DNA from: Rhizobacter sp.
GTDB lineage: Bacteria; Pseudomonadota; Gammaproteobacteria; Burkholderiales; Burkholderiaceae_C
Reading direction: 5' to 3'
Length of the DNA: 64,000 bases
Assembly (NCBI GenBank): GCA_050916095.1
Contig: CP050901.1
Coordinates: forward strand, 1,655,474 to 1,719,473
Part shown: in pieces, positions 7,047 to 39,428 of the stretch
How the letters are laid out: each line of letters starts with the position of its first letter
How positions within the stretch are numbered: position 1 is the first letter of the stretch
Made by a program: the position numbers and the translations under genes
Notes under the pieces: model-generated
What the model saw: the letters and a program-made list of their open reading frames with translations, nothing else
What the model was told of the DNA's origin: nothing
Database searches by the model: none

Positions 7047-7162
7047 AAAAGTTCAGAAAAACAGTGCTGGCGGATGGCTGGCAGGAGCGTCGTTGCAAAA
7101 CGCATGTGAAGTGATGAGGCTGCGGCCTGCCGATAAAGGGGAGGGCGGCAGGTCGTGGTTAT

Positions 7163-8370: not shown

Positions 8371-9156
8371 TCAACCCTCCAGTGAAAAGGTCAAAGGCTG
8401 CACATACCAAAAGGGGATGGCCTCGCTGCCGCGCCGGGCGGGCTGGTAACGCCATTGCCGCACCGCCTCCAGCGCGGCTTGATCCAGCCGGGGATAGCCG
8501 CTGCTGCGTTTGAGTTTGATGTCGCCCACCGAGCCATCGGCCAGGATATAAACATCCAACTGAACGCGGCCTTGTTCACCCAAACGCCGGGAGACGGGCG
8601 GATAGGCGGGGGCGGGGTTGTTGAGGTGGGCGGCATCCGAACGCGGTGGCACCACGGGCGCGGGGACGGCCACTGGTGCAGGCGCGGGCGGTGCAGGGGA
8701 AGGAAGTGCCTCGACCGCAGCAGCCTCTGCCACGGCGGGGGGGGCGGGCACAGGTGGCGCTGCCGTGACTGCCCGCTCGGAAGGTGCTGCCACAGGTGCG
8801 GGGGGCACGGGCTGGCGTCGCACCACGGGCCGAGGTGGCGGCTGCGGTTGCGGTTGTGCCACTGCCGGCAAGGGCACCGGTTCGACCACCGGTGGGGCCG
8901 TGACCAGCATGCCCACCACAGCAGGTGGTGCGACAGGCAGGTTGTGTTGGTTGAAGTATTGAATCAGCACCACCGCCAGCAGCAAGTGAAGCAAAGCCAC
9001 GGCCATCAAGGCCCAGGGGTTTTCAGAACTGCCCTGAGTCGCTGCAACAACCAGTGTGTGCAGAGGTGGTGCAGGCGGCGGTGTGTCGGAACGGGTATCC
9101 GCCGGATTGCCGGTCAAACCCGTTGCAATCGGTATTGATTGAGAAAATGCAGACAT
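8371..9156 (-). CDS. tonB: energy transducer TonB
   Basis: N-terminal TM segment, long Pro/Ala-rich linker, C-terminal TonB domain (...YPRLDQAALEAVRQWRYQP...). Confidence 0.85.
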   Translation of the reverse strand: MSAFSQSIPIATGLTGNPADTRSDTPPPAPPLHTLVVAATQGSSENPWALMAVALLHLLLAVVLIQYFNQHNLPVAPPAVVGMLVTAPPVVEPVPLPAVAQPQPQPPPRPVVRRQPVPPAPVAAPSERAVTAAPPVPAPPAVAEAAAVEALPSPAPPAPAPVAVPAPVVPPRSDAAHLNNPAPAYPPVSRRLGEQGRVQLDVYILADGSVGDIKLKRSSGYPRLDQAALEAVRQWRYQPARRGSEAIPFWYVQPLTFSLEG

Positions 9157-9210
9157 GGTGAAGCCTCAGACAAACACAGGGCTGGCTTCACCGGAGGTGT
9201 GGCTGGCGCG
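9157..9210 (-). ncRNA. conserved 5' leader hairpin element (copy 1, tonB leader)
   Basis: RNA-sense GGUGAAGCC ... 18 nt ... GGCUUCACC-AUG. Includes a GGCUGGC direct repeat and a CACC-GGA-GGUG mini-hairpin. Nearly identical in sequence and spacing to 12561-12613. Confidence 0.4.
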
Positions 9211-9230
9211 AGGGCTGATTGTAGCTCGCA

Positions 9231-9251
9231 AATGAGAATGATTCTTATTAC
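9231..9251. promoter_or_regulatory. candidate Fur box upstream of tonB-exbBD
   Basis: AATGAGAATGATTCTTATTAC resembles the 19-bp Fur consensus GATAATGATAATCATTATC. Lies about 75 nt upstream of the tonB ATG. Confidence 0.45.
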
Positions 9252-9269: not shown

Positions 9270-9602
9270 TCACTTCGAACTGCTGTCGTGCTGAAGCTGA
9301 CGCGCCAGGGGTGCGAGCCACCGAGGCTTCCATGTCAGCACGAAAGCCACGGTCATGGCATTGAACGTCAGCATCACGGTCCACAACAAGCTGCCAAAAC
9401 CGGGGCCCTGGCTGTGCAGGAGGCCCATGAGGGCGCAGGCCTGCATCAGCAAACCCACGGCTGCCAGCCCACGTCCACCGAGGCGCTGTGCCAGGGGCAA
9501 ACCCGAGACATGGCTCCAATGCCGCTCTTGTGAGAGCGCCAGCGCGACAAACCCCAGCCAACTGCCGACAAAGGCCAGCCCGGTCAGCACTGTTTCAAAC
9601 AT
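9270..9602 (-). CDS. DUF3325 domain membrane protein
   Basis: 110-aa hydrophobic protein directly downstream of the PepSY-TM gene, the typical partner arrangement. Confidence 0.7.
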   Translation of the reverse strand: MFETVLTGLAFVGSWLGFVALALSQERHWSHVSGLPLAQRLGGRGLAAVGLLMQACALMGLLHSQGPGFGSLLWTVMLTFNAMTVAFVLTWKPRWLAPLARQLQHDSSSK

Positions 9603-11238
9603 GGTGAGTCCTGGTGTTGGCGGTGACGGCTTGAGTCACCAAATGTTCTGTGTGCGTCGCTGTTCGATTCGCCTGCGGCTGGGCGCCGCCTAAACGCTGA
9701 AAACACCAGCTTGCTAGCCCGGCAACCGCCAGCAGCATCACATCCATGCCGGCCACTGGCCAGTAGCCGCGTGCCAAGGTAGCGGCCACGTGGTCGCCGG
9801 TGGTGACGCCGTTGAGCACGACGGCCAAGATCGCCAGCGCCGCAATCGCCAGGCACTGCTCGCGCCAGGCCCGCCGTGCCGGTTGGGTCGCCGGGTCGGC
9901 GCGCCGCCAGGCGGCGTGGGCGAATGTGGCCAGCCACACCAAATAAAAGGCCCACATTTCCAGTGCGGCACGGTCTTGTGCAGCGAATTGAGCATCCAAG
10001 GGCAGCAGGCGGTTTGTCACGAAAAACGCCAGCGTGGCGATGACGATGCCGGTGATGCTGCCAATGGCGAGCGCTTCCACCAGGCGCACTCCAGCGAGCC
10101 CTTTTTGGGCATGGCTGGCGCGGCGAGACTCCAGCCAAAAGATAAAGCCGGTGGCGATCATCACGCAGCCCGCCAACCCCGCAGCAAAGTACAACCACCG
10201 CAAGGTCCAGTGCCGAAACTGGATGAAGTGCAAGCCGCTGATGAAACGCTGCACCGTCATCACGGGCGCGGAGTTGAAGCTGTAGAGCACGCGGCCCGAC
10301 ACGCCGTCTAGGTACAACTGGTCCAGGTTCATCGTCACACTGTCTTCATAGCTGCGGCGCAGTTCCACGTAGCTGGCTTTGTCTCCAGGGTGCCAAACGC
10401 GGATGAAATTCGCCTCACCGCCTTGCCACTGGGTGCGCGCCTGGGCACGCATGGCGTCCAGCGAGGCGAGGTTGGACGCGGGTTCACCCTCGGTGGCGCG
10501 GCGGTACTGGCCATAGCCGTCCTTGTTGAAAGCTTGGCGCGCCGCTGGCACGTCCTTGGCTTCAGGGTAGGCCGCGCTGTAGCTGCTGGGCCAGTAAATG
10601 CCCATGAAAATCACCAGACCCGACAGCGCCATCACAAAATGAAATGGCATGGCCAGAACGCCCGTGAGGTTGTGTAAGTCCAGGCTGGCGCGCTGGATGT
10701 GTTTTTTGGGACGGAACAAAAAGAAGTCGGCAAAAATTTTGCGATGAATCACCACGCCGCTGACCACCATCACCAGCATGGCCATGCCCGCCATGCCCAC
10801 CAGCCAGTAGCCCAGGTCTTTCCACTTCAGGTGCAGATTGAAGTGGAAGGGAAAAATAAAACCCGTGCCCGCCAACGTTTCTGTGTGTGCCAGCACCGCG
10901 CCGGTTTGCGGGTGCAGGTAGCGGCGCTCGGTGGTTTTGGTGGCCTCGTTGCGCCAGCGCAGCTCCACCGCAGGCACCCGCTCGCTGGGCAGTCGCAAAA
11001 ACCATTGCGAAGCGCCCTGCGCAAGCTGCTGTGCTTGCGCGGTGATGGGCCCGTCCAGCTGCACTGCTTCTGTGTCCAGCTTGGGCGACAAGCGTGTGCC
11101 GGGCGACATCCAGCGGTCAATCTCGCGGTCAAACACACTGAGCGTGCCCATCCAAAAAATCGCCAACAGCAAGCTGCCAATCACCACCCCCGCCCATGTA
11201 TGCAACCAGGCCATTGATTTGCGGAAAGTTGCTTCCAT
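9595..11238 (-). CDS. PepSY-associated TM helix protein (PiuB-like iron-uptake membrane protein)
   Basis: Start trimmed to MEATFRKSMAWLHTWAGVV.... Multiple TM segments and periplasmic loops. Confidence 0.8.
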   Translation of the reverse strand: MEATFRKSMAWLHTWAGVVIGSLLLAIFWMGTLSVFDREIDRWMSPGTRLSPKLDTEAVQLDGPITAQAQQLAQGASQWFLRLPSERVPAVELRWRNEATKTTERRYLHPQTGAVLAHTETLAGTGFIFPFHFNLHLKWKDLGYWLVGMAGMAMLVMVVSGVVIHRKIFADFFLFRPKKHIQRASLDLHNLTGVLAMPFHFVMALSGLVIFMGIYWPSSYSAAYPEAKDVPAARQAFNKDGYGQYRRATEGEPASNLASLDAMRAQARTQWQGGEANFIRVWHPGDKASYVELRRSYEDSVTMNLDQLYLDGVSGRVLYSFNSAPVMTVQRFISGLHFIQFRHWTLRWLYFAAGLAGCVMIATGFIFWLESRRASHAQKGLAGVRLVEALAIGSITGIVIATLAFFVTNRLLPLDAQFAAQDRAALEMWAFYLVWLATFAHAAWRRADPATQPARRAWREQCLAIAALAILAVVLNGVTTGDHVAATLARGYWPVAGMDVMLLAVAGLASWCFQRLGGAQPQANRTATHTEHLVTQAVTANTRTHHV

Positions 11239-11248
11239 GCCCTTGCTC

Positions 11249-11542
11249 CTAAATGAACTGCAATACACCCCAGGCCAGCGCCGCGCCGCCCAGCACACCC
11301 AGACTCAAGCGAGAAGTACTGCGCACACTGAAGGCCCACAGCAGCACCACCAGGTAAATCACAAAACCCAGCATCGCCGCCGACACCGTGGCTTCGCTGC
11401 GTGGCAGCCCTGCCAGCACCAAACCCTGGGTGAGCAAAGCCACCAGTGCGGCAGTGAGGGCGTAACCACCCGCCACCGCCAGGGTGACCCGCAGCAGCAT
11501 TCGTGATGCCAGGCGGAAACCAGAGGGTGAATTTGTTGTCAT
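11249..11542 (-). CDS. DUF3649 domain membrane protein
   Basis: Start trimmed to MTTNSPSGFRLASRMLLRVTLAVAGGYALT.... Canonical upstream partner of PepSY-TM and DUF3325. Confidence 0.7.
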   Translation of the reverse strand: MTTNSPSGFRLASRMLLRVTLAVAGGYALTAALVALLTQGLVLAGLPRSEATVSAAMLGFVIYLVVLLWAFSVRSTSRLSLGVLGGAALAWGVLQFI

Positions 11543-11780
11543 GTCATTCCCCGCTGGAAGGGTTTTGCAGATAGGTTCACGACCCATTGAAAACGCAGAA
11601 ACTCAAAACGGCACCCCCAGCCAGGCCCCGGGTAGAGGTTGGTGGGCCCGGCGGCGTTGCCGCTGATCGACATAGAAAGGTTCGCGCCGAAACCCAGCGC
11701 GCGAACCGAAGGGCCGCGTGGCAAGGCAGCTTGCAATGAAAGTAGCCTCAGTAAGAGGGGGGCGACTGGAACCGTCATGC

Positions 11781-12560
11781 TCACTTCATGACATTGGGCG
11801 GTGCAGCGGGCAATGTCGGCAGCGGGGCCAAGCCTTTGGCTTGTACCAAGGTGAGCGTGGTGACGAAACTGCTGCGGTCGTAAGCCTCCGGGCCGCTTGC
11901 GCCTTGGCGCTCGCCTGGGCCAGTGCTGTGTTTGACCTCGGCGGTGTAGGTGCCGCGCCAGGGCATGGCCACCTTGAGCTTGCCTTGGTTGTCGGCTTCG
12001 TGCTCACGCAACCAGCCTGAGCTGGTCACGAACACCACCTTGGCTTTGGGCAGGGGCTGGCCGTCGTAGAAGGCCTGTAGCTCCACACCGTCCGCACCGC
12101 TTTTGCCGGTGGGCACCAGGTCGAGTTTGAGTTGCGGCGCTTGTGGCGAAAGGTCTGTCACCAGGCGTGCGGCGGGGTGGTAAACGCTGCGCACGGTTTT
12201 GTCGCCGTCCTTGCGCTCACTCATGGGGTAGGTGGGCTCCTCCGCCACCAGGGATTCGCCGCGTGCGGCACGGCCAGAAAGCACAAAACCGGCGGCGGTT
12301 TTGTGCAAAGTCAAGGGTCGCACCCCTTGTGCTGAAACCTGGCGCGCAACCGGTTTGACGAACTTGTCGAGCAGCCCCGGCGAGGCTTCGCGCAGGTTGC
12401 CTCCGAACTCGCCAAAGTAAAGCACGGCGTTTCGGTTGTTCTGTTCGATCCAAATTTGGTGGGCTTGGGCCGAGCCGAGCGTTGTAGCCAGCATGGCAGA
12501 TAAAGCAAGGGCGCGCAGCGATGCCGTTAGCCGTGATTGCGAGGCGGTAGAGGTCAACAT
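11781..12560 (-). CDS. DUF4198 domain periplasmic protein
   Basis: Signal peptide (MLTSTASQSRLTASLRALALSAMLATTLGSAQA). Commonly encoded with TonB-dependent and PepSY iron systems. Confidence 0.7.
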   Translation of the reverse strand: MLTSTASQSRLTASLRALALSAMLATTLGSAQAHQIWIEQNNRNAVLYFGEFGGNLREASPGLLDKFVKPVARQVSAQGVRPLTLHKTAAGFVLSGRAARGESLVAEEPTYPMSERKDGDKTVRSVYHPAARLVTDLSPQAPQLKLDLVPTGKSGADGVELQAFYDGQPLPKAKVVFVTSSGWLREHEADNQGKLKVAMPWRGTYTAEVKHSTGPGERQGASGPEAYDRSSFVTTLTLVQAKGLAPLPTLPAAPPNVMK

Positions 12561-12613
12561 GGTGAAACCTTTGAATAAAGAAAAGGCTGGCTTCACGCGG
12601 GGTGTGGCTGGCG
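12561..12613 (-). ncRNA. conserved 5' leader hairpin element (copy 2, DUF4198 operon leader)
   Basis: Same architecture as 9157-9210: GUGAAGCC paired with GGUUUCAC immediately 5' of the AUG, with a compensatory G-U wobble. Confidence 0.4.
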
Positions 12614-12633
12614 GATGGAAAATTATATATACA

Positions 12634-12652
12634 AATGCGAATCATTCGCATT
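12634..12652. promoter_or_regulatory. candidate Fur box (near-palindrome) upstream of the DUF4198 operon
   Basis: AATGCGAATCATTCGCATT, a near-perfect palindrome close to the Fur consensus. Adjacent AT-rich stretch AAAATTATATATAC. Confidence 0.5.
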
Positions 12653-12706: not shown

Positions 12707-12769
12707 CACCCCGCACCCCGCACCCCGCACCCCGCACCCCGCACCCCGCACCCCGCACCCCGCACCCCG
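12707..12769. repeat. heptanucleotide tandem repeat (CACCCCG)x9
   Basis: Nine perfect tandem copies counted directly, followed by a degenerate tenth. Lies in the divergent intergenic region between the DUF4198 operon and the DUF2325 gene. Confidence 0.9.
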
Positions 12770-12927
12770 CCAGCCCGCGCCAGCCAGTGCTCCTCGAAAA
12801 GGAATGCTGCCCATGCCGCGTCAGTGCCCCATCGCCCGAAACACCCGCTTTCCTTGCGCTACGCCACCACAGAATATGCGGTTGCGCTGTATTGAGTTTG
12901 CGCCCAAGCGACTTGCCGGAATGTCCC

Positions 12928-14623: not shown

Positions 14624-14975
14624 GGCGAGCCATCGTGAAGTCCAGACCTTCGCGCCGGGGCCGAAACAAGCGCCAAGCCGAGCGAAGTGCCGCAGAACAC
14701 CGGCGCCTGGCTTGGCGGCGTGAGCGTTGGCGAGATGGGTTCACCGGTGCCGTGGTTGCCGGTGTTGTGGGGGCGATATTTTGGATTTTCCCGCCCTCAA
14801 TACCGGGTGGCGGTTGGGACGCTGGGCCTCTGGTGTCGTTTGTGTGGTGATGTGAGGGCCGCCAACGCCCGGGGCACAATCAATGGCTGCAAACTCATCC
14901 AGGAGCCCCCACCATGCAAGGCGACCCCCAAGTCATTACTGACCTTGCCTCTGTAATCCGTATCCCATAACCGAG

Positions 14976-15872
14976 TCACGAATTGGCTTGCATGGCCTGG
15001 GCCGCAAACCAGCTTTGCTCGAACTGCATCGGACTGACATAGGCCAGAGTCGAGTGCAGCCGGGCTTGGTTGTACCAAAGCAGCCAGGCCATGACCTCGT
15101 CTTTGGCTTGCCTCCTGGTTTCAAAGCGCTGCCCATGTAGGCGTTCTACCTTCAGTGACCCGAACAAGGTCTCGCTGCACGCATTGTCCCAACAGTTGCC
15201 CCGCCTGCTCATGGACGCCTGAATTCCGTACTCACTGAGCACGTCCCTGAAGTCTTGGCTTGCGTATTGACTGCCTCTGTCGCTGTGGAAGATCAGCCCT
15301 GCGCCTTTGTCTGGATGTCGCTTGAACCATGCCATGCGCAGCGCATCAATGACGATGTCGCGTGTCATGTCTTGCCGCAAGCTCCAGCCCACCACTTGAC
15401 GGCTGAAGAGGTCAATCACCACTGCCAGGTACAGCCAGCCCTCTTGGGTGTCGATGTAGGTGATGTCCCCCGCCCACACCTTGTCAGGCTCTTGAACGTT
15501 GAATTGCCGCTCCAGCAGGTTGGGTGCAATCGGCAAATCATGTTTGCTGTCGGTGGTGATCTTGAATCTGCGTTTGCCTTTGGCGCGAATGCCGTGCAAT
15601 TGCATGAGCTTTTGCACCCGGTCTTTGCCCACCCGGATGCCGCGTGCCAGCAGTTCTTTCCACATGCGAGGCCAGCCGTAGCTGGCCCTGACCTGGGCGT
15701 GAATTGCTTTGATGTGTACCAGCAAGGCGTCATCACTGAGGTGGCGTCGTTGCGCCGCACTGGCCCGCCGCAGGAAGTGCTCGTGATACCCGGCCACGCT
15801 GACACGCAGAACCCGGCACTGCACAGAGATTGGCCACACCCGCCGGTGGCTTTGTATGAAGGCGTACTTCAC
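14976..15872 (-). CDS. IS3-family transposase OrfB (DDE integrase core)
   Basis: 298 aa, rve/DDE domain. Overlaps OrfA by 4 bp, probably expressed as an OrfAB fusion by -1 frameshifting. Confidence 0.9.
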   Translation of the reverse strand: MKYAFIQSHRRVWPISVQCRVLRVSVAGYHEHFLRRASAAQRRHLSDDALLVHIKAIHAQVRASYGWPRMWKELLARGIRVGKDRVQKLMQLHGIRAKGKRRFKITTDSKHDLPIAPNLLERQFNVQEPDKVWAGDITYIDTQEGWLYLAVVIDLFSRQVVGWSLRQDMTRDIVIDALRMAWFKRHPDKGAGLIFHSDRGSQYASQDFRDVLSEYGIQASMSRRGNCWDNACSETLFGSLKVERLHGQRFETRRQAKDEVMAWLLWYNQARLHSTLAYVSPMQFEQSWFAAQAMQANS

Positions 15873-16168
15873 GTCGATCCCTTTGCAAAGTACGCCGTGG
15901 CCTTTTCCAGGATGTCGCGCTCCATCTTGACCCGCGCCAGCTCTGCCCTCAAGCGGCTGATCTCCATTTGTTCGCTGCTTACCTTGACCCGGCTGTCAGC
16001 GCCCTTGAGTTTGCCTTCGCGGTGCGCTTTGATCCAGTTGAACAGCGTCTGCTCAACCACCCCAAGCGTCCTGGCCGCTGCCGCCATGCTTTGGCCGCCT
16101 TCCACCAGCCGCACCGCCTCGAACTTGAACTCCTGCGTGTACCTCGCCCTTTTGGCTCTCTTCGTCAT
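15869..16168 (-). CDS. IS3-family transposase OrfA (HTH)
   Basis: 99 aa, MTKRAKRARYTQEFKFEAVRLV...ILEKATAYFAK, typical of IS3 OrfA. Confidence 0.9.
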   Translation of the reverse strand: MTKRAKRARYTQEFKFEAVRLVEGGQSMAAAARTLGVVEQTLFNWIKAHREGKLKGADSRVKVSSEQMEISRLRAELARVKMERDILEKATAYFAKGST

Positions 16169-17112
16169 TTCCGCTCTCCTTTGCTTGCGATTGAATCACT
16201 CAGCAAGGGATACGGTTTTCGGGGGCAAGGTCATTACCGCGCTGCAAGCGCAACTCAGAAACGAACTCACGGCCATCAACCAGTATTTCGTCCACTACCG
16301 CATGTTCAAACACTGGGGTTTTGAGAAGATTGCCAAGAAGGAGTACGAGGAGTCCATTGGCGAGATGAAACACGCCGATGCGTTGATGGAGCGCATCTTT
16401 GCGCTCGACGGTCTGCCCAATTTGCAAGACCTGGGCAAGTTGTTCATCGGTGAAACTCTGGTGGAAGCACTGCGTTGCGACCTCACCTCTGAGCAAGGGG
16501 CACAGCAAACCATCAAAGACGGTATTCATACCTGCGAGGCCGCCCGAGACTATGTGTCACGCGACCTGCTGCAAGGCATTTTGGAAGACACCGAAGAACA
16601 CATCGACTTCCTGGAAACCCAGCTCGATCTGGTAGCCAAGGTGGGTGAGCAGAACTACCTTCAGTCGCAGATGGGTTGACTTTTGATGGGTGGACTCAGT
16701 CGTCGAACGTCAGCTGAGGCACCTCCGATACCGTGACTTGCTCGCAGTGCTCGCCAGGGCTGCGATAGCTGTCACGGGGCCAGCACCCCGATGGTGTCCA
16801 GATCTTCAATGCTCTGCTCACGGCAGGAGTCTCCGGCCGACATTCAAAACAGTGAGTGCTCCGACGCGAAGCGTTGTCGAGCGACCATGTGTGGACCCGC
16901 CGCCATCACCCGGCGAGTCGCTTGGCCCAACGGCAACGCCGGAGAACATCAGGCCAAAAAGCCGCTTGTCCACAGTCCGGCCAAGGGTAAGCGTGGAAGC
17001 CGCAGGTGTAAGCGCGGCGCGCTCTTGTGCATCGCTTTGCCCTCGTGTGTCTTATAGAAGCAGTTTCTGCCGTGACAGGCGGGTTAACGATGGCCGTCAG
17101 CTTGGGCGCGGA

Positions 17113-17131
17113 ACGTGTTGTAATGCGAATC
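17113..17131. promoter_or_regulatory. candidate Fur box upstream of bfd-hemP
   Basis: AATGCGAATCGTTCTCATT is the same variant as the box at 12634. It is about 440 bp upstream of bfd, so the regulatory link is uncertain. Confidence 0.35.
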
Positions 17132-17568
17132 GTTCTCATTTATAGTATCCGAACTGGTCTGTTATGCCAAAACCAATTCACGACAGAACCCACCCGCGAA
17201 GGGCTGTGGCCGGTTTAACAGATCGTTCAGCCACATCGCCCGCTAGGGCGCTATCTCCGTACTCTGGAGGAGTCGATCTTGAAACATCTCCTGCCTAATT
17301 GCCGAGCCGCGACGCTCACGCGAGTTGTTGCGCTGCCGAGGAATTCACAGCTGTCTTGGCTCTCTACGGCCATCAGTCGGTTGAAGGCTGAGGCTCGAGG
17401 CTCGATTTTGGGTACCGCCCATCTGCTCATTCAGTGCGATCAAGGCAGTGCCTGCGGGCATGAATCCAGAAAAGACGGGCTCACTCGCTTATGTTTTATC
17501 CATGCATCGCAAAACAACGGCCCGTTCCTGGGCGGTTCTGGGGGGCGGAGCGCCGAAGGAGCACAAGC

Positions 17569-17820
17569 ATGATCGTGTGCATTTGCCACCGCGTCTCCGA
17601 CCGGGACATTCACCGCGCTGTTCACGAAGGCTGCCGCAGTTTTGAAGACCTGCAAGATGAATTGCGCGTGGCCACAGGCTGTGGGGCGTGCACGCGCTGC
17701 GCAGCCCATCTTTTCGAGGCACAAGTGCAGGCCTGCTCGAAGGTTTGTTCTGCGGAAACGTCAGCCACTTGCTCGGCTGGTTTGCAATCGTCGGTGAACT
17801 TTTTGCAGGTGGCCGCATGA
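17569..17820 (+). CDS. bfd: BFD-like [2Fe-2S]-binding protein (bacterioferritin-associated ferredoxin)
   Basis: MIVCICHRVSDRDIHRAVHEGCRSFEDLQDELRVATGCGACTRCA with CxC...CxxC. RBS AAGGAG. Confidence 0.8.
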   Translation: MIVCICHRVSDRDIHRAVHEGCRSFEDLQDELRVATGCGACTRCAAHLFEAQVQACSKVCSAETSATCSAGLQSSVNFLQVAA

Positions 17821-18038
17821 ACGAAAACTCCTCGGGCGCGCCCCTGCCACAGCCCGTCCAACCGGACCAGCAGGGTGACTTTGTTTTCACCCATTCCCAC
17901 CGTAACGCAGGCCAACCCGTGCGGCGAATCACCAGCGCCCAGCTTTTTGGTACCAACCAGGAAATTGAAATCGAACACGGCGGCAGTTGTTATCGACTGC
18001 GGCAAACCGCCTTGGGAAAACTCATCATGACCAAGTAG
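17817..18038 (+). CDS. hemP: hemin uptake protein HemP
   Basis: 73 aa, ...RITSAQLFGTNQEIEIEHGGSCYRLRQTALGKLIMTK. ATGA overlap with bfd. Confidence 0.75.
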   Translation: MNENSSGAPLPQPVQPDQQGDFVFTHSHRNAGQPVRRITSAQLFGTNQEIEIEHGGSCYRLRQTALGKLIMTK

Positions 18039-19080: not shown

Positions 19081-19620
19081 GATGAGGACTTGCTGCCCTT
19101 GTCCCATGGCGCGGTTGAATCTGCGCCCGATTGACTTGCGTGGTGACAGCCCTGCTGTCACCACGCCGCCGAGTCCCCCGTCAGAGGACGCTCGAAGGTC
19201 AAGCCTTCGATTCGCAAGGGGTTGCCCCCTTCACACTGGAGTGCGGTGTCGAACCGCCCCCGCTTTGAGTTGCCACGGCTTGACCGTGGCTGTCTCCGCC
19301 AGATTCCCGTCAGAGGATCAGCGAAGGTTAGTTTTTTGCCTTTGCAGTGGATGAGGTTCTGATGACCTTCATCCAGCGGCGCGGTTCGCCCCGCGCCCAA
19401 AGTCTCCGCATGGCCACAGCTCCGCTGTCGCCATGCCGCCAGGTTCCCCGTCAGAGAACTTCAGAAGGTCAAGCCTTCGGATTGCAAGGGTTTGCGCCCT
19501 TCACCTTTGGTTGCGGCTTGTCCCGCACCGCCCTTGAGTTGCCACGGCTTGACTGTGGTGGCCCACGTCAGATCCCCCGTCAGAGGATCAACCACTGAAC
19601 GTGTGCGAAGCACACCCCTT
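19081..19620. repeat. two tandem ~270-bp repeat units (~75-80% identical) with conserved hairpins
   Basis: Both units begin GATGAGG..., contain CCCGTCAGAGGA sub-repeats (4 copies), and have hairpins TGGTGACAG/CTGTCACCA and GCCACGG/CCGTGGC that keep pairing through partly compensatory changes. Confidence 0.6.
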
Positions 19621-19862
19621 GGACCCTGGGTCAATGGTCTGCTGTGTGAGCTGTACCCACAGGTACGACACACAGTGCCACATGCGCGTGCAACGCAGGC
19701 AAGTTGTACCCCTTTGCACAAACGGGATTGGTGTCCCGTGTCCCTTGTGATTCCTACTCGCTGCGGCGTTTGGGATGGACAGAAACACTTACCGATTTTT
19801 TGGCACCACGTTTTCATTTTTGGTTTTCTTGTTTTTGCTCCGCTGTTTTCAAGAGGTACCCC

Positions 19863-20729
19863 ATGCGCAACCTGAACCACGATTTCAAGAACCTTGCCCG
19901 TCGCAACCGAGATGGGTCGTTTGCGACCCAGCATGACCGAGAGGTCATGCTGACCTTGGTCGCGAATCAATTGCACGAAGGGGGCTTCCGGCATCTACGG
20001 GCCACGGGGGTGCGCTCCAAGCATGTGGAGCATTTGGTGAACCGCTGGCATGAAGAAGGCATCAGCCCCGGCACCTTCAAGAACCGGATGAGCGCTTTGC
20101 GTTGGTTGGCCGAGAAGATCGGCAAACAAAACATCGTGGCCCGTGAGAATGCGGCCTATGGCATTGCGGATCGGCGCCACGTGACGAATGAATCCAAGGC
20201 CCAGTTGTTGGAAATCGCACGCCTTGATGTGGTGACCGATCCGTACACGGTGTTGTCGCTGAGGCTGCAAGAAGCCTTTGGTCTGCGGCGGGAGGAAAGC
20301 ATCAAGCTGCAGCCCGTTTGGGCCGATCGTGGCGATGTGTTGCGACTCAAGGCCAGTTGGACCAAAGGCGGCAAGGAGCGGGAAGTTCCGATCGTCACTG
20401 ATGTACAGCGCCTAGCGTTGAACGATGCCAAACAGTTGGCGGGTTCAGCGTCCTTGATCCCTGAAGGCATGTCCTACCGCGACCAACTCAACCGCTTCAA
20501 GGCGCAAGCGGCCAAGGCGGGCATCAACCGGGTGCATGGGCTGCGGCATCAATACGCGCAGCGGCGGTATCAACAGCTCACCGGATGGAAGGCTCCCGCA
20601 GCGGGTGGGCCAACTTCAAAGCAACTCAGTGCGGAGCAGAAGGCGTTGGACCGGCAAGCACGCCTTGTTGTCTCGCGTGAGCTGGGTCATGAGCGCGAGC
20701 AAATAACTTCGGTTTATTTAGGCCGCTGA
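19863..20729 (+). CDS. tyrosine recombinase / phage-type integrase family protein
   Basis: C-terminal HGLRHQYAQRR ... LGHEREQITSVYLGR (H-x-x-R and catalytic Tyr). Start trimmed to MRNLNHDFKNLA. Confidence 0.7.
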   Translation: MRNLNHDFKNLARRNRDGSFATQHDREVMLTLVANQLHEGGFRHLRATGVRSKHVEHLVNRWHEEGISPGTFKNRMSALRWLAEKIGKQNIVARENAAYGIADRRHVTNESKAQLLEIARLDVVTDPYTVLSLRLQEAFGLRREESIKLQPVWADRGDVLRLKASWTKGGKEREVPIVTDVQRLALNDAKQLAGSASLIPEGMSYRDQLNRFKAQAAKAGINRVHGLRHQYAQRRYQQLTGWKAPAAGGPTSKQLSAEQKALDRQARLVVSRELGHEREQITSVYLGR

Positions 20730-20763
20730 ACCAGAACCGCAATGCATGACTGGTCAGACCGCC

Positions 20764-21135
20764 ATGAACACGCTGGACCTGGTTCAAGCCGCACACCTGC
20801 TAAAGGTGCATCCAAAGACCTTGGAGCGTCTGGCACGCAGTGGTGCGGTTCCGGCCTGCAAGGTGGGACGCGCCTGGGTCTTTGTCGACGACTTGCTTCT
20901 TGAAATGCTGGTGTCAAAATCGACCTCGCGTGTGTCCGTGGTCGACTTACAGGAGAACTCTGAATGTCGCTCTACAGACGCAAGGACTCACCATTTTGGT
21001 GGGTCAAACTCCCGCTCATTCGCGGCGAGTCGAAGCCTTTACAGCAAAGCACTGGGACTGCCGATAAGCGGCAGGCGCAGCAGGTCCATGACCAGCTCGC
21101 CGCCGCCCGATGGGAGCAAGAACGGCTTGGTGTGA
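20764..21135 (+). CDS. AlpA/Xis-like helix-turn-helix excisionase-family protein (3' extent uncertain)
   Basis: MNTLDLVQAAHLLKVHPKTLERLARSGAVPACKVGRAWVFVDDLLLEML is a classic phage regulatory HTH. The ORF as drawn overlaps the int start by about 170 bp. Confidence 0.5.
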   Translation: MNTLDLVQAAHLLKVHPKTLERLARSGAVPACKVGRAWVFVDDLLLEMLVSKSTSRVSVVDLQENSECRSTDARTHHFGGSNSRSFAASRSLYSKALGLPISGRRSRSMTSSPPPDGSKNGLV

Positions 21136-21998
21136 AGGCCCGGCACACCTGGGAAGAGGCGGTACTGCGCTGGCTCTTGGAAACGAAGCACAAGGCCACG
21201 CACGAAGATGACAAGGCAAAGCTTCGCTGGCTGGATTCTTACCTTGGAGGAAAGTACCTCGACGAGATCGACCGAACGCTGATTGACCGGATCAAGTTTG
21301 ACCGCGAAAACGTCTCTTCGCACTCAACAACAAACCGCTACTTGGCTTTGGTGAGAGCGATTCTCAAACGTGCTTGCAACGAGTGGGAATGGCTGGAACG
21401 GGTGCCCAAGTTCAAGTTGTTCAAGGAAACCGAAGGCCGGGTTCGTTCATTGACACCGCAGGAATTTCAGACGCTGTTGAATGAACTGCCGGAGCACTTG
21501 TTCGACATGGCGGTGTTCGCAGTGGCAACCGGGCTCAGGCAAGCCAACGTGAAGGGCTTGCAGTGGTCACAGGTGGACTTGGAACGACAACATGCCTGGA
21601 TTCCTGGAAGCCAGCACAAGAATGGCAAGCCGCATTCGGTGCCTTTGAACGACATGGCCTTAACTGTGTTGGGCAGGCAACTGGGCAAGCACCCGAGTTG
21701 TGTGTTCACTTACCAGGGTCAAGCCATCGAGCAAGTCTCCACGCGGGCTTGGCGGCGGGCGCTGGAGCGGGCAGGGATTGCGGACTTTCGGTGGCACGAT
21801 TTGCGGCACACGTTTGCGACATGGCACCGGCAGGCCGGAACACCCACCCATGAGCTACAGCGGCTCGGTGGTTGGAAAACCGGCGTGATGGTGGAACGTT
21901 ACGCCCATGTCGCACCCGAGGCGTTGCAAAGTGCGGCCAGCCGGTTGGATGGGTTTGGTGGCTACGATTTGGCTACGCCACAAAGGACAACGGCTTAG
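20964..21998 (+). CDS. int: tyrosine-type site-specific integrase (phage/island integrase adjacent to tRNA)
   Basis: 344 aa with R...HDLRHTF...Y catalytic signature (WHDLRHTFATWHRQAGT ... VERYAHV). Ends 29 bp from the 3' end of tRNA-Asn. Confidence 0.85.
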   Translation: MSLYRRKDSPFWWVKLPLIRGESKPLQQSTGTADKRQAQQVHDQLAAARWEQERLGVKARHTWEEAVLRWLLETKHKATHEDDKAKLRWLDSYLGGKYLDEIDRTLIDRIKFDRENVSSHSTTNRYLALVRAILKRACNEWEWLERVPKFKLFKETEGRVRSLTPQEFQTLLNELPEHLFDMAVFAVATGLRQANVKGLQWSQVDLERQHAWIPGSQHKNGKPHSVPLNDMALTVLGRQLGKHPSCVFTYQGQAIEQVSTRAWRRALERAGIADFRWHDLRHTFATWHRQAGTPTHELQRLGGWKTGVMVERYAHVAPEALQSAASRLDGFGGYDLATPQRTTA

Positions 21999-22026: not shown

Positions 22027-22102
22027 TGGCTCCTCGACCTGGGCTCGAACCAGGGACCTACGGATTAACAGTCCGGCGCTCTACCGACTGAGCTATCGAG
22101 GA
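22027..22102 (-). tRNA. tRNA-Asn (GTT), 76 nt with encoded CCA
   Basis: Reverse complement reads TCCTCGATAGCTCAGTCGGTAGAGCGCCGGACTGTTAATCCGTAGGTCCCTGGTTCGAGCCCAGGTCGAGGAGCCA. Anticodon loop CU-GUU-AA, T-loop GGTTCGAGCCC, 7-bp acceptor stem TCCTCGA/TCGAGGA. Confidence 0.9.
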
Positions 22103-22151: not shown

Positions 22152-24356
22152 TCAAAGATCAGTTTGCACTGACAAGCGGAAGGTTCGCGGTGCCATGGGG
22201 TAGAGGTAGACGTGGTCGAACTGGTAAGGCGACTCGCGCCAGCGGCGTTGGTCGAACACGTTGCTCACACCGGCCCGCCAAATCCACTGGCTGGTGGATT
22301 TGTTCCCTGCACCGCCAGTGCGGTAACGCAAGCCCAAATCCACCTGCTGGGTGCTGGGAATGCTGACGCTGTTGTCGGGCAGCACTTGTCGGCGGCTTTC
22401 AGAAACAACATCGGCCAACAATGCCAAACCCTGCAGCGCAGCCACGTCGTAGCGCGCTTGCAGCTTCACCGTCGTGGTCGGCACGTTCACCGGCGTTTTG
22501 CCGTTGATGTTTGGGTCTTGGCTGTTTTGCCGCTTTGCGTGCAGCCACTGCAAGCCGCCCTGCAGTGACCACGGACCGCTGCGCAGGTTGGTGGTCAGCT
22601 CGATGCCTTGGTGGCGAGCTTGTCCATCCGTCTGGCGCGTGCAGGTGCCGCCTGGGGTGTCGCTGAAACAATCTGGCCCGACGCTGGTTGAAACGGGGCG
22701 ACTGATGTCAAACCACGCGACCGACCAGGCCAGGGGTCGGCCGCTCTTTTTCAGGCCAATCTCGGTTTGTCGGCTACGCAGTGCAGGCAAGGCCTGACCT
22801 GCATTGGTGAAGCGCGCGCGGTTGGGGGCTACATCGCTTTCAACGCCTTGGCCCCAACTGGCGTAGGCCGTGGTGTCGTCGTTCAGGGCAACGCTTGCCG
22901 CTAACCACGGGGTGGTGAACGATTGCTGGTAGCTCGTTGCACGCGAGCCATTGGTGCGAATGCTGTCGCGCTCCAATCGGCTGTGACGCAGGCCCAGCCA
23001 CGCGGTGAGGTGGGGCGTGAATTTGACCGCGTCGCGTACAAAAAATTCGGTGCTGCGCTCATCGCGGTTGGTGTTTTGATCGGTCAAGGCCGGGTCGGCC
23101 GGTGTGATGGCCGTGCCGATCACATTGCCGCTACCCACGTAGTTGTAGGCCTGCATCTGAAAACGTTGGATCAGCTTGTTCTGCTGCACGCCCCAGGAAA
23201 GCCGGTGTTCCAAATTGCCGGTTTGAAATTGGCCATGCGCGGCCACCTCCAAGCTATGCAAACGGCGGCGCTCGTTTTCGCTGCGGAAGTCGTACATGTC
23301 AAAGCTGCCATCCGAACAGTAACGGTCGTAGCGCTCTTCTGCACTGCAGCCATAGGCGTAAGCGAGGCGGTCCTGGGTTCGCAGGCGTTGGCTAGCAGCA
23401 TGGGCTGTCCAGCGCCACTGCGAATTCAGACGCTGGGTGTAACGCAGTGAGTAGGTGTCTGCGTCCATCACCACAGGCAAGGACCATGGCTGGTTGTTCA
23501 GGTTAATACGCGCATCGTTCACTGCGGGCAGCGTATTGCCCAGCAAACTGAAGCCGGGTTGGCTGCGCTGGCTGCGGTGGCTGGTTTCAAACTCCGCTTC
23601 CAAAAGAACGTCGGGGTTGATGCGCCAATCACCGGCCACGGCCAACAAATTGCGGTGGCCTTGCAACTGACGTACGAAAGAATCCAAACGTTCATAAGCC
23701 GCATTCACCCGCAGGCCGAATGTTTGATCCTTGCCAAATCGCTGGCTGATGTCCACCGCGCCCAAGAGTGCGCCGTTGTCTCGCCATTCCACGAAGGCGT
23801 TGCGCAGCGGCTCGGCCAAAGGGCGCTTCACCACCAAGTTGACCAAACCGCCTGGGCTGCTGACGCCAGTTTGCACGCCACTGGTGCCTTTGAGGATTTC
23901 GATGCGTTCTTTGTTGTCCAGTGGCAGCGAGGTTTCTGCGCTGATGGGCAAGCCATCACGTCGGAAGTTTCTGCGGTGGTCCACCACATACCCACGAATC
24001 GTCAGGTAGTCCCAATACCCTTCGCTGTTGTAGGCGTCGCTCACAGCGGGGTCGAGTTTGGTGGTGTTGGACAAACGCGAGAAGCTGCGGTCGCGCTGCG
24101 CCTCCAGGTTGATGGTGCTGGCTTGGAACGGGGCCTTTGCGGCAGGGACGTCACCCCAACCGCTCACGTCAGCAGGTGGGTTGGCGCGGCCTGTCACCGT
24201 GACGGGTTCAAGTGTTGGGGTGTTCTGGTTGGTGGTCTGCGCCCAAAGGCTGCTGCTGATGCAAAGCAAAAGAGCGGCATGTGCAATGGGCTTCAGCGCT
24301 GAATGACGCTGATACTTGGTCGAGCGGGTCGTGTGTGATGCGAAGAAATTTGCCAT
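22152..24356 (-). CDS. TonB-dependent siderophore receptor
   Basis: Signal peptide ...LLLCISSSLWAQT, plug and barrel regions. Start trimmed to MANFFASHTTR. Confidence 0.8.
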   Translation of the reverse strand: MANFFASHTTRSTKYQRHSALKPIAHAALLLCISSSLWAQTTNQNTPTLEPVTVTGRANPPADVSGWGDVPAAKAPFQASTINLEAQRDRSFSRLSNTTKLDPAVSDAYNSEGYWDYLTIRGYVVDHRRNFRRDGLPISAETSLPLDNKERIEILKGTSGVQTGVSSPGGLVNLVVKRPLAEPLRNAFVEWRDNGALLGAVDISQRFGKDQTFGLRVNAAYERLDSFVRQLQGHRNLLAVAGDWRINPDVLLEAEFETSHRSQRSQPGFSLLGNTLPAVNDARINLNNQPWSLPVVMDADTYSLRYTQRLNSQWRWTAHAASQRLRTQDRLAYAYGCSAEERYDRYCSDGSFDMYDFRSENERRRLHSLEVAAHGQFQTGNLEHRLSWGVQQNKLIQRFQMQAYNYVGSGNVIGTAITPADPALTDQNTNRDERSTEFFVRDAVKFTPHLTAWLGLRHSRLERDSIRTNGSRATSYQQSFTTPWLAASVALNDDTTAYASWGQGVESDVAPNRARFTNAGQALPALRSRQTEIGLKKSGRPLAWSVAWFDISRPVSTSVGPDCFSDTPGGTCTRQTDGQARHQGIELTTNLRSGPWSLQGGLQWLHAKRQNSQDPNINGKTPVNVPTTTVKLQARYDVAALQGLALLADVVSESRRQVLPDNSVSIPSTQQVDLGLRYRTGGAGNKSTSQWIWRAGVSNVFDQRRWRESPYQFDHVYLYPMAPRTFRLSVQTDL

Positions 24357-24617
24357 CGTGGTTCCGTGTTGCGATGGCAGGTCGGCGGCCCCAACAAAGC
24401 GTTGCCACGTCAAGTGGCGGCGATGCTTGGAGCATGCTTCCCTGCGCGAGGATTACCTCAATCAGGTTCAAAGGGACTTTCTCAGTCGAGCCGTGGCGAA
24501 CACGGCCCAACACCCCTAGCGAATGCGGCAACAGTTTGTTGCCGCAAGGGAGATTATCGCTTCAGTTGAAAGCCCATGGCCAGGGCAGGCCGAAGGGGCA
24601 CCGCTCACACGCGGTGT

Positions 24618-37165: not shown

Positions 37166-38093
37166 CAGCCACTAACCAATGAACAGGCTCGGTCGACATT
37201 TCGTAGACATCATGGTTCTGCCTCCGTGGCTTTGAACACCCCTGGCCATTGAAGCTCTATCGAGACTCCATCTGTTCCGAATATCGTTGGGTGGTCCAAA
37301 TGTCTATATCCCAGAAGTCTTTAACGATCAGCGCGTGATTGGCGTCGAAATCAATTGCCCAATGGTAGTTCTTGACAGGCTGTTCGGGGCCGCTGAACCC
37401 GATCCGAACACAGCGTCCAACTACCTTCCATTCGTTGCATCCACGCCAGAACGTTGCGGCGTTGGTAGCATCTGGTAGCGGCAAGGACTCGTTGAACAGC
37501 CGATTGAACGTATCGACAAACTGCCGAGCTCTTGACTCGACAACTTGATCGACTGTCCAGATGTATTCGGGGGTGCCGTTCATCGCGCTACCAGCAACCG
37601 CCGCTGCATAAAGCACGACTGACTCTCGCAGTGCTGTCAATACGACCGGATCACGCGATAAAGCGGCGAGGGTCACCAAAGAGAAATCGTTGGAGTTGAC
37701 AGCACACAGGTAAGCGGCGTCCGTTATTTTTGGGATGTTCCACGCGGGAATCGTCTTCTGAAGGGCGAGTGACAACGAATCTTCCCCCCCGCTTAACAAA
37801 CAGTCCCCATCGGATGACGGTCCAAAGATGCCTGACTCGATGATTTGTTTGAGGCGCTTGTAGCCCTCTACGGCAAAAACATTTGGTTCCAGGTGCCTCG
37901 GAACGCGTTGAAGCGCTCGCATAAGACGGAAGTACTCTGTCAGCTGCTCGTCCTCAGCGTAATAGCCCTCAATGGGAACATTTGCCGGGGCAATTGCCAA
38001 CGCAGAAGCGGTCTCTTTGGCGCAGCAATGACCTTGCCCCCGAAAACCGTATCCCTTGCTGAGTGATTCAATCGCAAGCAAAGGAGAGCGGAA

Positions 38094-38393
38094 ATGACGA
38101 AGAGAGCCAAAAGGGCGAGGTACACGCAGGAGTTCAAGTTCGAGGCGGTGCGGCTGGTGGAAGGCGGGCAAAGCATGGCGGCAGCGGCCAGGACGCTTGG
38201 GGTGGTTGAGCAGACGCTGTTCAACTGGATCAAAGCGCACCGCGAAGGCAAACTCAAGGGCGCTGACAGCCGGGTCAAGGTAAGCAGCGAACAAATGGAG
38301 ATCAGCCGCTTGAGGGCAGAGCTGGCGCGGGTCAAGATGGAGCGCGACATCCTGGAAAAGGCCACGGCGTACTTTGCAAAGGGATCGACGTGA
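38094..38393 (+). CDS. IS3-family transposase OrfA
   Basis: 99 aa, identical to 15869-16168. Confidence 0.9.
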   Translation: MTKRAKRARYTQEFKFEAVRLVEGGQSMAAAARTLGVVEQTLFNWIKAHREGKLKGADSRVKVSSEQMEISRLRAELARVKMERDILEKATAYFAKGST

Positions 38394-39286
38394 AGTACGC
38401 CTTCATACAAAGCCACCGGCGGGTGTGGCCAATCTCTGTGCAGTGCCGGGTTCTGCGTGTCAGCGTGGCCGGGTATCACGAGCACTTCCTGCGGCGGGCC
38501 AGTGCGGCGCAACGACGCCACCTCAGTGATGACGCCTTGCTGGTACACATCAAAGCAATTCACGCCCAGGTCAGGGCCAGCTACGGCTGGCCTCGCATGT
38601 GGAAAGAACTGCTGGCACGCGGCATCCGGGTGGGCAAAGACCGGGTGCAAAAGCTCATGCAATTGCACGGCATTCGCGCCAAAGGCAAACGCAGATTCAA
38701 GATCACCACCGACAGCAAACATGATTTGCCGATTGCACCCAACCTGCTGGAGCGGCAATTCAACGTTCAAGAGCCTGACAAGGTGTGGGCGGGGGACATC
38801 ACCTACATCGACACCCAAGAGGGCTGGCTGTACCTGGCAGTGGTGATTGACCTCTTCAGCCGTCAAGTGGTGGGCTGGAGCTTGCGGCAAGACATGACAC
38901 GCGACATCGTCATTGATGCGCTGCGCATGGCATGGTTCAAGCGACATCCAGACAAAGGCGCAGGGCTGATCTTCCACAGCGACAGAGGCAGTCAATACGC
39001 AAGCCAAGACTTCAGGGACGTGCTCAGTGAGTACGGAATTCAGGCGTCCATGAGCAGGCGGGGCAACTGTTGGGACAATGCGTGCAGCGAGACCTTGTTC
39101 GGGTCACTGAAGGTAGAACGCCTACATGGGCAGCGCTTTGAAACCAGGCGGCAAGCCAAAGACGAGGTCATGGCCTGGCTGCTTTGGTACAACCAAGCCC
39201 GGCTGCACTCGACTCTGGCCTATGTCAGTCCGATGCAGTTCGAGCAAAGCTGGTTTGCGGCCCAGGCCATGCAAGCCAATTCGTGA
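38390..39286 (+). CDS. IS3-family transposase OrfB (DDE)
   Basis: 298 aa, identical to 14976-15872. Confidence 0.9.
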   Translation: MKYAFIQSHRRVWPISVQCRVLRVSVAGYHEHFLRRASAAQRRHLSDDALLVHIKAIHAQVRASYGWPRMWKELLARGIRVGKDRVQKLMQLHGIRAKGKRRFKITTDSKHDLPIAPNLLERQFNVQEPDKVWAGDITYIDTQEGWLYLAVVIDLFSRQVVGWSLRQDMTRDIVIDALRMAWFKRHPDKGAGLIFHSDRGSQYASQDFRDVLSEYGIQASMSRRGNCWDNACSETLFGSLKVERLHGQRFETRRQAKDEVMAWLLWYNQARLHSTLAYVSPMQFEQSWFAAQAMQANS

Positions 39287-39428
39287 CTCGGTTATGGGAT
39301 ACGGATTACAGAGGCAAGGTCACAAAGTAGCTCGTCCCGTTCGTGGTGTTTCATCGCTTCGCGATAAAACTCGTCGAGAGCAAGTAGCAGGACTCGGTTA
39401 TCTACGATTCGAGCGTGAGTGGTCATGA

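Follow-up and report, generated by a model that had tools for sequence, protein, structure and literature searches.

A common leader with HPRE-like repeats upstream of the tonB-exbBD and DUF4198 operons of a Rhizobacter species

Two neighboring iron-uptake operons in a 64,000-nucleotide stretch of contig CP050901.1 from Rhizobacter sp. (64 kb; the window, to which all coordinates refer), tonB-exbBD (ATG 9156) and DUF4198/PepSY_TM/DUF3325 (ATG 12560), share a leader layout of ∼58 nt in which the heptamer GCCAGCC occurs twice. This heptamer is the same as the core of the published HmuP/HemP-responsive element (HPRE). We judge the chances to be slightly better than even that the common leader is a 5′-untranslated region (5′-UTR) with two HPRE copies (core GCCAGCC, extended form AAGCCAGCC) that lies behind a Fur-repressed σ70 promoter and is activated by HemP. 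The leader is not a new class of regulator. The HPRE is already known; what is new are the putative target operons (tonB-exbBD, DUF4198/PepSY, and possibly DUF2325) in an uncultured Rhizobacter-like lineage, the 21-nt spacing of the repeats, and the overlap of one repeat with a predicted stem that occludes the ribosome-binding site (RBS).

Layout and conservation of the common leader

Both operons and both leaders are on the minus strand. The first gene of the tonB operon, assigned by Pfam, encodes a TonB protein of 261 amino acids (8371–9156) and is followed in the same operon by exbB, exbD, a HemS/ChuX-like gene, a TonB-dependent receptor (TBDR) gene, and imelysin/DHOR/imelysin genes (Pfam). 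Directly upstream of tonB is the second operon (9270–12560), which begins with a gene for a DUF4198-like periplasmic protein (11781–12560, Pfam) and continues with a 112-amino acid open reading frame (ORF), PepSY_TM, and DUF3325. Orthologues of the DUF4198 gene on metagenomic contigs L051 and L052 carry the same leader.

Read in the mRNA sense, each leader is made up, in order, of a Fur-like palindrome, a TAYAAT hexamer, 9–10 variable nt, GCCAGCC-ACACC-N4-GTGAAGCCAGCC, a U-rich tract of 12–14 nt, and (G/A)AGG(C/T)TTCACC-ATG, and the two can be aligned over the whole span from Fur box to ATG. The tonB copy reads GCCAGCC ACACC TCCG GTGAAGCCAGCC CTGTGTTTGTCT GAGGCTTCACC ATG, and the DUF4198 copy reads GCCAGCC ACACC CCGC GTGAAGCCAGCC TTTTCTTTATTCAA AGGTTTCACC ATG. 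Repeat 1 of the tonB leader is at 9201–9207 and repeat 2, 21 nt after it, at 9180–9186; the corresponding repeats of the DUF4198 leader, located by the pattern scan, are at 12606–12612 and 12585–12591 (all minus strand). The preliminary description of this DNA had placed one element upstream of both tonB and DUF4198, and this was confirmed: the 28-nt pattern GCCAGCCACACC-N4-GTGAAGCCAGCC (24 specified bases, with as many as 3 mismatches allowed) is matched at just two sites in the window and never in 100 shuffles. A CACC-NNN-GGTG mini-hairpin proposed for both copies was found in the tonB copy; the DUF4198 copy has CAC...GTG only.

Further copies of the element are present in relatives, on 10 metagenomic contigs encoding TonB or DUF4198 homologues, so that 12 distinct leaders, including the 2 from the window, could be compared. 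Eight of the additional leaders precede tonB (contigs L001, L002, L004, L012, L015, L055, L056, and L057) and two precede DUF4198 (L051 and L052). The element is absent upstream of the TonB gene of contig L017 (52% identity), which lies inside another operon. At fourfold synonymous sites of the region encoding the TonB C-terminal domain, seven of the eight orthologues are ∼40–60% identical to the window, which is near saturation. Identity to the window in the orthologous leaders is 12–14 of 14 positions for the GCCAGCC heptamers, 4–6 of 6 for the 5′ arm and 7–9 of 9 for the 3′ arm of the hairpin described below, and 1–5 of 10 for the interval from the −10 box to the motif. Because the motifs are near-identical while synonymous sites and adjoining leader positions have diverged, sequence comparison indicates that the element is under purifying selection, as expected of the conserved cis element that had been proposed for the predicted 5′-UTRs of these Fur-box-associated iron-uptake operons. 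The invariant core of the 12 leaders is GCCAGC (12 of 12 leaders for repeat 1), present twice at the fixed 21-nt spacing, together with AGG-TTC before the ATG; this core, and not the stem, is the most conserved feature.

An exact-pattern scan with CCAGCCACACCNNNNGTGAAGCC of 185,579 species-representative genomes gave 7 matches and no convincing copy: the two inspected (L006, Limnobacter; L010, Enterobacterales) seem to be coding, and the rest are from unrelated phyla. The relaxed pattern GCCAGCNNCACCNNNNGTNNAGCCAGCC gave 31 matches in the JGI metagenome collection, none of them with the context of a Fur box, −10 box, and ATG. A leader-core-like sequence, GCCAGCCGCAAGCCGGTGAATTGCCAGC, is found on the plus strand at L001 2532–2559 and L004 2511–2538, antisense at a Methyltransf_33 / DinB_2/FGE-sulfatase coding junction; it is probably a chance match kept by coding constraint.

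The Fur-box-like sites of the preliminary description proved to be 9-1-9 palindromes. Scored against the E. coli consensus GATAATGATAATCATTATC (a 19-bp palindrome), the site AATGAGAATGATTCTTATT in the tonB promoter (9231–9249) matches at 13 of 19 positions and has an aligned Fur-like counterpart in all orthologous leaders. The site AATGCGAATCATTCGCATT (12634–12652), common to the DUF4198 operon and a divergent DUF2325 gene, matches at 12 of 19. The palindromes are immediately 5′ of the −10 hexamer and are kept in all orthologous leaders, and Fur is predicted to bind them. The predicted −10 hexamer is TACAAT in the tonB leader (9218–9223, minus strand) and TATAAT in the DUF4198 leader; 10 of the 12 leaders have TAYAAT, and the remaining two have CACAAT and TATACT. 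No extracytoplasmic function (ECF) or σ54 promoter motifs were seen by eye. The −10 box is 9–11 nt upstream of repeat 1 and would place the transcription start about 2–4 nt 5′ of the first GCCAGCC.

The PGAP annotation starts both proteins downstream of the codons used here, TonB at 9006 (Met51; P0001, 211 amino acids) and the DUF4198 protein at 12494 (Met23; P0121, 237 amino acids). However, the TonB frame is open from the upstream ATG in nine orthologues, with a conserved N-terminal MSAxS, and the residue corresponding to the PGAP Met51 is V, F, or A in orthologues. If DUF4198 is translated from ATG 12560, its signal peptide is complete, and the orthologues share TTCACCATG. The orthologue alignment and the conserved TTCACCATG favor the upstream ATGs, and the leader therefore abuts real start codons. 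A GTG-initiated upstream ORF or N-terminal extension from GTGAAGCCAGCC was rejected: it has no Shine-Dalgarno (SD) sequence, is out of frame in tonB, and is in frame with the ATG in some DUF4198 leaders only. That in-frame GTG accounts for the 271-amino acid ORF and the translated leader in P0123. A small plus-strand ORF (ATGGTGAAGCC...) was ruled out because its frames differ between the two copies. In the U-rich tract of the tonB leader (9166–9177, minus strand) there is a three-codon frame, NTG-TTY-NTY-TRA, with its stop overlapping the SD; it is also found in L001, L002, L004, L012, L055 (with ATG), and L057 and is probably just a conserved U/G-rich loop.

GCCAGCC repeats and the HemP gene

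The HPRE was defined as a direct-repeat motif of 5′-UTRs in alpha- and betaproteobacteria (Amarelle, Koziol & Fabiano 2019, Biometals 32:273, as related in PMC9131926 and PMC9241770). Rhizobacter sp., a member of the Burkholderiales, is within this taxon range. The GCCAGCC core, present twice per leader and extended as AAGCCAGCC in copy 2, is the same as that of the Chromobacterium violaceum HPREs (for example AAGCCAGCCGACAGCCAGCC of chuR), which have been reported as CCCGCAAGCCAGCCGACAGCCAGCCAGCG at −26 from the chuR ATG and GCCAGCCAGACGACGCCGCCG at −49 from vbuA (PMC9131926). Copy 2 of the leaders ends 23–24 nt before the ATG, compared with the published −26 and −49, and the predicted −10 box would place it within the transcript. 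With its core equal to a published alpha- and betaproteobacterial motif, the element is at its core not specific to this lineage, contrary to what had been suggested. HmuP, HemP, and ChuP are small heme-binding proteins needed for full expression of their targets, whose activation by them requires the HPRE, and in Ensifer meliloti and C. violaceum they seemingly act post-transcriptionally via the 5′-UTR (PMC9131926).

GCCAGCC occurs seven times in intergenic DNA of the window, and every occurrence falls in one of four leaders of a single iron cluster. Each is read in the sense direction of its leader, and this holds for both strands where DUF4198 and DUF2325 diverge. Of 56 window genes, just 4, all of them in the iron cluster, are preceded by at least two GCCAGC in the 80 nt upstream. 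One of the two further leaders belongs to the divergent DUF2325 gene (ATG 12823), with the sense pair GCCAGCC-CGC-GCCAGCC at a spacing of 10 (12769–12785, plus strand), conserved in L051, L052/L053, and L002. In the DUF2325-type leaders, which are unrelated, single-sequence folding predicts that the second GCCAGCA pairs with the start region AUGCUGCGC, and the DUF2325-type leader may be another HPRE target. The other is the exbD/HemS-like intergenic leader, where the pair GCCAGCC-ATCC-GCCAGC at a spacing of 11 (7066–7082, minus strand) was picked up by the pattern scan and as a weak match (E = 0.06) to covariance model R1. Beyond the known copies this was the only other match of that model, and no further strong copies were found, in ∼121 kb comprising the window, six related loci, and L036.

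The same two leaders show additional features. In the exbD/HemS-like leader (7047–7100, minus strand) the repeat pair is followed by a U-rich tract and GGAGG, and the L056 orthologue retains one GCCAGC. The leader of the small ORF/DUF2325 operon has GCCAGCC-NGC-GCCAGC(A/C) on the minus strand of L051 (285–300), L052 (1269–1284), and L002 (4828–4843). Directly 5′ of the DUF2325 GCCAGCC pair of the window is a perfect tandem repeat, (CACCCCG) × 9.1 (12707–12770, plus strand), where the L051 and L052 leaders have a single CACCC(C)G. The array has the appearance of a slipped-strand expansion, by which the 5′-UTR is lengthened, and could be phase-variable.

A candidate trans-acting factor is encoded in the window by hemP (17817–18038, plus strand; 73 amino acids, PF10636), identified by tblastn (E = 6e-14) and Pfam (57.6 bits against a cut-off of 25). 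A bfd-like [2Fe-2S] gene (17569–17820, plus strand) overlaps hemP by 4 nt, and a Fur-box-like site (13/19) lies at 17119–17137, ∼430 nt upstream of bfd. On contigs L001, L004, and L012 hemP is the divergent neighbor of tonB. On L055 hemP lies ahead of a TBDR gene with AGCCAGCCAGC...CAGCCAGCC in its leader, which is the canonical order of hemP and TBDR together with AGCCAGCC repeats. A search of a plasmid collection for an independent hemP-TBDR locus returned enterobacterial matches only, plus one Phyllobacterium hemP without an adjacent receptor. A receptor is downstream of the leader in the same predicted operon in the case of tonB, as that operon continues into the TBDR gene; the DUF4198/PepSY operon is without a receptor.

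The leader hairpin and the weighing of explanations

RNAfold predicts the hairpin GGUGAAGCC/GGCUUCACC as both the minimum free energy (MFE) and the centroid structure of the two window copies (−16.8 kcal/mol for tonB and −9.8 kcal/mol for DUF4198) and as the MFE structure of most orthologues. The 5′ arm of the tonB leader is GGTGAAGCC (9184–9192), to which the first three bases of repeat 2 belong, and the 3′ arm is GGCTTCACC (9157–9165), directly 5′ of the ATG (9154–9156) and overlapping the SD sequence GAGG (9164–9167). The DUF4198 leader has the 5′ arm GTGAAGCC (12589–12596), overlapped by repeat 2, and the 3′ arm GGTTTCAC (12562–12569), just before the ATG (12558–12560). The stem is 9 bp long in the tonB copy. 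It is 8 bp long, with one G-U pair, in the DUF4198 copy because this copy reads CGTGAAGCC. The loops are 18 and 19 nt, longer than the 15–18 nt of the preliminary description. The stem spans −1 to −9 and two bases of the SD. Of the sequestration of the start codon that had been proposed, the predicted hairpin over the SD and −1 region thus stands; the AUG itself is outside the stem, and the occlusion of the start region is unexceptional (see below).

In the stem's favor, two conserved blocks are complementary over 8–9 nt. The inner AAGCC/GGCUU pairing, between HPRE copy 2 and the SD, can form in 9 of 12 leaders (two via a G-U wobble), and the other three lose one pair each. The hairpin is a real predicted fold, so far without evolutionary support. 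No Rfam family was found in the region at the gathering threshold, and a permissive threshold gave just a chance match to a small RNA (sRNA) fragment (E = 8). A loop of the iron-responsive element/aconitase type (CAGUG) was ruled out because it is found in one leader only.

The sequence of events that we envisage for HemP control of the leader is as follows. On iron limitation Fur would leave the promoter, and transcription would begin a few nt before HPRE copy 1. Within the nascent leader, pairing is predicted between GGUGAAGCC, in which HPRE copy 2 begins, and GGCUUCACC; half of the SD would be hidden, as would the bases as far as −1, and translation and/or mRNA stability would be damped. 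HemP, encoded 9 kb away, would then act, either by itself or together with a partner, on the GCCAGCC repeats to cause a post-transcriptional rise in expression, as for HmuP with shmR and ChuP with chuR and vbuA. The simplest route would be for HemP to keep HPRE copy 2 out of the stem, so that the RBS is exposed. Since the inner half of the anti-RBS arm is made of repeat 2 (AAGCCAGCC), the SD would in this model be freed once the repeats are occupied, a step that we regard as tentative and rather doubtful. The effect would be to bring the TonB-ExbBD energizer and the DUF4198/PepSY operon (putatively of ferric reductase type) under the HemP regulon as well as Fur. A stronger form of the proposal has HemP, perhaps heme-bound, as a sequence-specific RNA-binding protein on phased GCCAGCC that captures repeat 2 and melts the anti-RBS stem, with a regulon including TonB-ExbBD and DUF4198/PepSY and with heme gating all TonB-dependent uptake in the lineage; this form is speculative and, in our estimation, probably does not hold.

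A number of observations weigh against this reading. The folding energies are no better than those of shuffled sequences, with z-scores of −0.1 to −1.8 for the window copies and +1.3 to −2.3 overall including orthologues, so that RNAfold of both leaders returns the hairpin with unremarkable statistics. The predicted pairing probability from −13 to +3 is 0.66 for tonB and 0.57 for DUF4198; these values rank 8th and 19th among 51 window genes, and occlusion of the start region is therefore unexceptional for this GC-rich window. The stem shows no covariation: the 12-leader alignment contains no compensatory change, three one-sided wobbles, and nine unpaired cells; 91.6% of cells pair, and the shuffle control gives the same values as those observed. 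By our estimate pairing is kept in one quarter of the observed changes, roughly as under unconstrained substitution. These counts do not sustain the argument that the G-U wobble of the second copy is structure-preserving, and L004 has a G·A mismatch at that same pair. The stem is broken in L055 (GGUCAUGCC/GGCUUCAUC), L056 (GUUGAAGCC/GGCUUCUUC), and L015 (GGUUGAGCC/GGCUUC-CC), which have lost two to three pairs without compensation and retain the GCCAGC repeats. The repeats are 21 nt apart here as against 10–11 nt in C. violaceum chuR, and the transcription start is a prediction. The match to the HPRE is to sequences quoted in PMC9131926, a paper later than the defining one of Amarelle et al. 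(2019), and the dependence of TonB and DUF4198 expression on HemP is proposed by likeness to HmuP and ChuP targets. The absence of the exact element from the genome and JGI metagenome collections means that its distribution is narrow or poorly sampled. Finally, the action of HemP/HmuP is disputed: in summaries of the literature the protein activates transcription in Burkholderia multivorans and B. japonicum, and in S. maltophilia it is a repressor. Published accounts of the HPRE/HemP-family mechanism describe it as unknown or contradict one another on transcriptional versus post-transcriptional action (PMC9131926, PMC9241770).

Comparison with described HPREs shows both likenesses and differences. 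The HPRE of E. meliloti shmR, as the work of Amarelle et al. (2019) is represented in later papers, is like the present element in being a direct-repeat 5′-UTR motif of iron-repressed uptake genes that co-occurs with hemP/hmuP and is thought to act on mRNA. Unlike that HPRE, the element here heads the tonB-exbB-exbD and DUF4198/PepSY_TM/DUF3325 operons and not directly a heme-receptor gene, its repeats have a 21-nt spacing and enclose a conserved ACACC-N4-GTGAA insert, and repeat 2 is in a predicted anti-RBS stem. C. violaceum (de Lima et al. 2022, PMC9131926) is likewise a betaproteobacterium in which Fur-repressed genes, chuR and vbuA, have AGCCAGCC repeats located 26–49 nt upstream of the ATG; their full expression requires a protein of the HemP family, and the targets extend beyond heme, vbuA encoding a siderophore receptor. 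In contrast to the present leaders, the chuR spacing is 11 nt, chuR is without a promoter of its own (internal leader, chuPRSTUV), no hairpin was described, and the targets are receptors and not TonB (PMC9131926).

The abstract of the study that defined the HPRE is said to have tied changes in the HPRE sequence to predicted RNA secondary structure, so the structural idea may not be new. One alternative, close to the view of the preliminary description, is a hairpin that sequesters the RBS by itself, independently of HemP, and is opened by temperature or by pairing of an sRNA with GUGAAGCCAGCC (anti-antisense activation). In favor of such a hairpin, the MFE fold abuts the AUG and both arms are conserved far above neutral positions, and activation of shiA by RyhB is an example of the sRNA route. 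There are precedents in Fur-regulated uptake genes, namely the FourU thermometer of shuA/chuA (PMC3660397) and CyaR activation of chuA (PMC9002310). Like the present leaders, the FourU thermometers of shuA, chuA, and shuT (PMC3660397, PMC5458455) combine Fur repression with a 5′-UTR hairpin occluding the SD of an iron- or heme-uptake gene. However, the features of a FourU or ROSE thermometer were not found: there is no UUUU:AGGA pairing and no U-tract (UUUU or U(U/C)GCU) facing the SD in a weak, imperfect stem, the GG of the SD pairs with the CC of GAAGCC in a perfect, stable, GC-rich 9-bp stem of −16.8 kcal/mol, the organism is environmental, and there are conserved motifs outside the stem. 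The CyaR-chuA case resembles the leaders in having an inhibitory hairpin that a trans factor could open on the 5′ arm, but here the conserved motif matches a protein-associated element and there is no sRNA partner in the window. The sole “intergenic” GGCUGGC of the window, at 25065, apparently belongs to a small minus-strand gene missed by gene calling (ATG near 25337), nothing sets the remaining GCTGGC sites apart, and no complementary intergenic sequence was found there, so that the earlier idea of an sRNA target gained no candidate. With covariation absent and stems broken in L055, L056, L015, and L004, and with the conserved upstream GCCAGCC and the GCCAGCC pairs of leaders without a hairpin left unexplained, we consider an autonomous hairpin unlikely.

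Equally improbable, in our assessment, is an operator at the level of DNA, in which HemP and a partner, or another regulator, would bind the phased GCCAGC repeats in duplex DNA immediately 3′ of the promoter and modulate transcription initiation or elongation. Repeats spaced 10, 11, and 21 bp apart (∼1–2 turns) would be in helical phase, and HemP/HmuP is reported, in the summaries referred to above, to bind DNA as an activator in B. multivorans and B. japonicum and to be a repressor in S. maltophilia. HemP of B. multivorans, which acts on hmuRSTUV (Sato et al. 2017, as presented in PMC9241770), shares the protein family, the bacterial order, and the context of Fur-regulated heme uptake with the present system. 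However, the binding reported there is to promoter DNA at an inverted repeat, GGCTGCGCGCCCGGGCGCAGCC, which is unrelated to the direct GCCAGCC repeats of the transcribed leader. The repeats are also 3′ of the predicted −10 box, which is odd for an activator, they are strictly sense on both strands of the divergent region, and ChuP did not bind DNA probes across chuP-chuR (PMC9131926). Another possibility is that the promoter and leader of one operon were copied to the other and persist, with little regulatory meaning, by common descent and RBS-context constraints. The window copies are clearly homologous from Fur box to ATG and the stem statistics are unremarkable, yet the motif blocks are invariant in orthologues whose synonymous sites are near saturation and whose adjoining leader positions are scrambled, and the same heptamer pair is found in non-homologous leaders; we regard this account as very improbable. 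The least credible proposal is that translation of the three-codon loop ORF, with its stop over the SD, opens the stem and couples to the tonB start. The frame is present in seven of nine tonB leaders with alternation of TGA/TAA and of TTT/TTC, and a possible SD, GGUGA, lies 10 nt upstream, but the frame is missing from L015, L056, and all three DUF4198 leaders, and its start codon is unconstrained, the first base being G, T, C, or A.

Other features of the window and implications

The window has three further features. A 1303-bp inverted duplicate of 99.7% identity (14940–16242 and 38020–39322) is probably an insertion sequence, one copy of which adjoins a ferritin-domain (bacterioferritin-like) gene at ∼16.2–16.7 kb. 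A 182-bp direct repeat (∼80% identity) is found beside two tyrosine-integrase genes and a tRNA gene (19146–19590, 19704–21998, and 22030–22102) and may be the boundary of an integrated element. A thiamine pyrophosphate (TPP) riboswitch scoring 56.4 bits, above the gathering score (24422–24527, minus strand), is upstream of a 753-amino acid ORF (22152–24413, minus strand).

HPREs, like proteins of the HemP family, are widespread among alpha- and betaproteobacteria. The leaders described here put the motif at the extreme 5′ end of a short, simple, predicted 5′-UTR, with one repeat within the predicted RBS stem, and so offer a compact and testable model for the mechanism of HemP. If HemP does control them, its regulon would reach beyond outer-membrane receptors to TonB-ExbBD and to the uncharacterized DUF4198/PepSY_TM/DUF3325 operon, and the DUF proteins could then be assigned to iron or heme acquisition; if it does not, the leader would be an ordinary conserved one.

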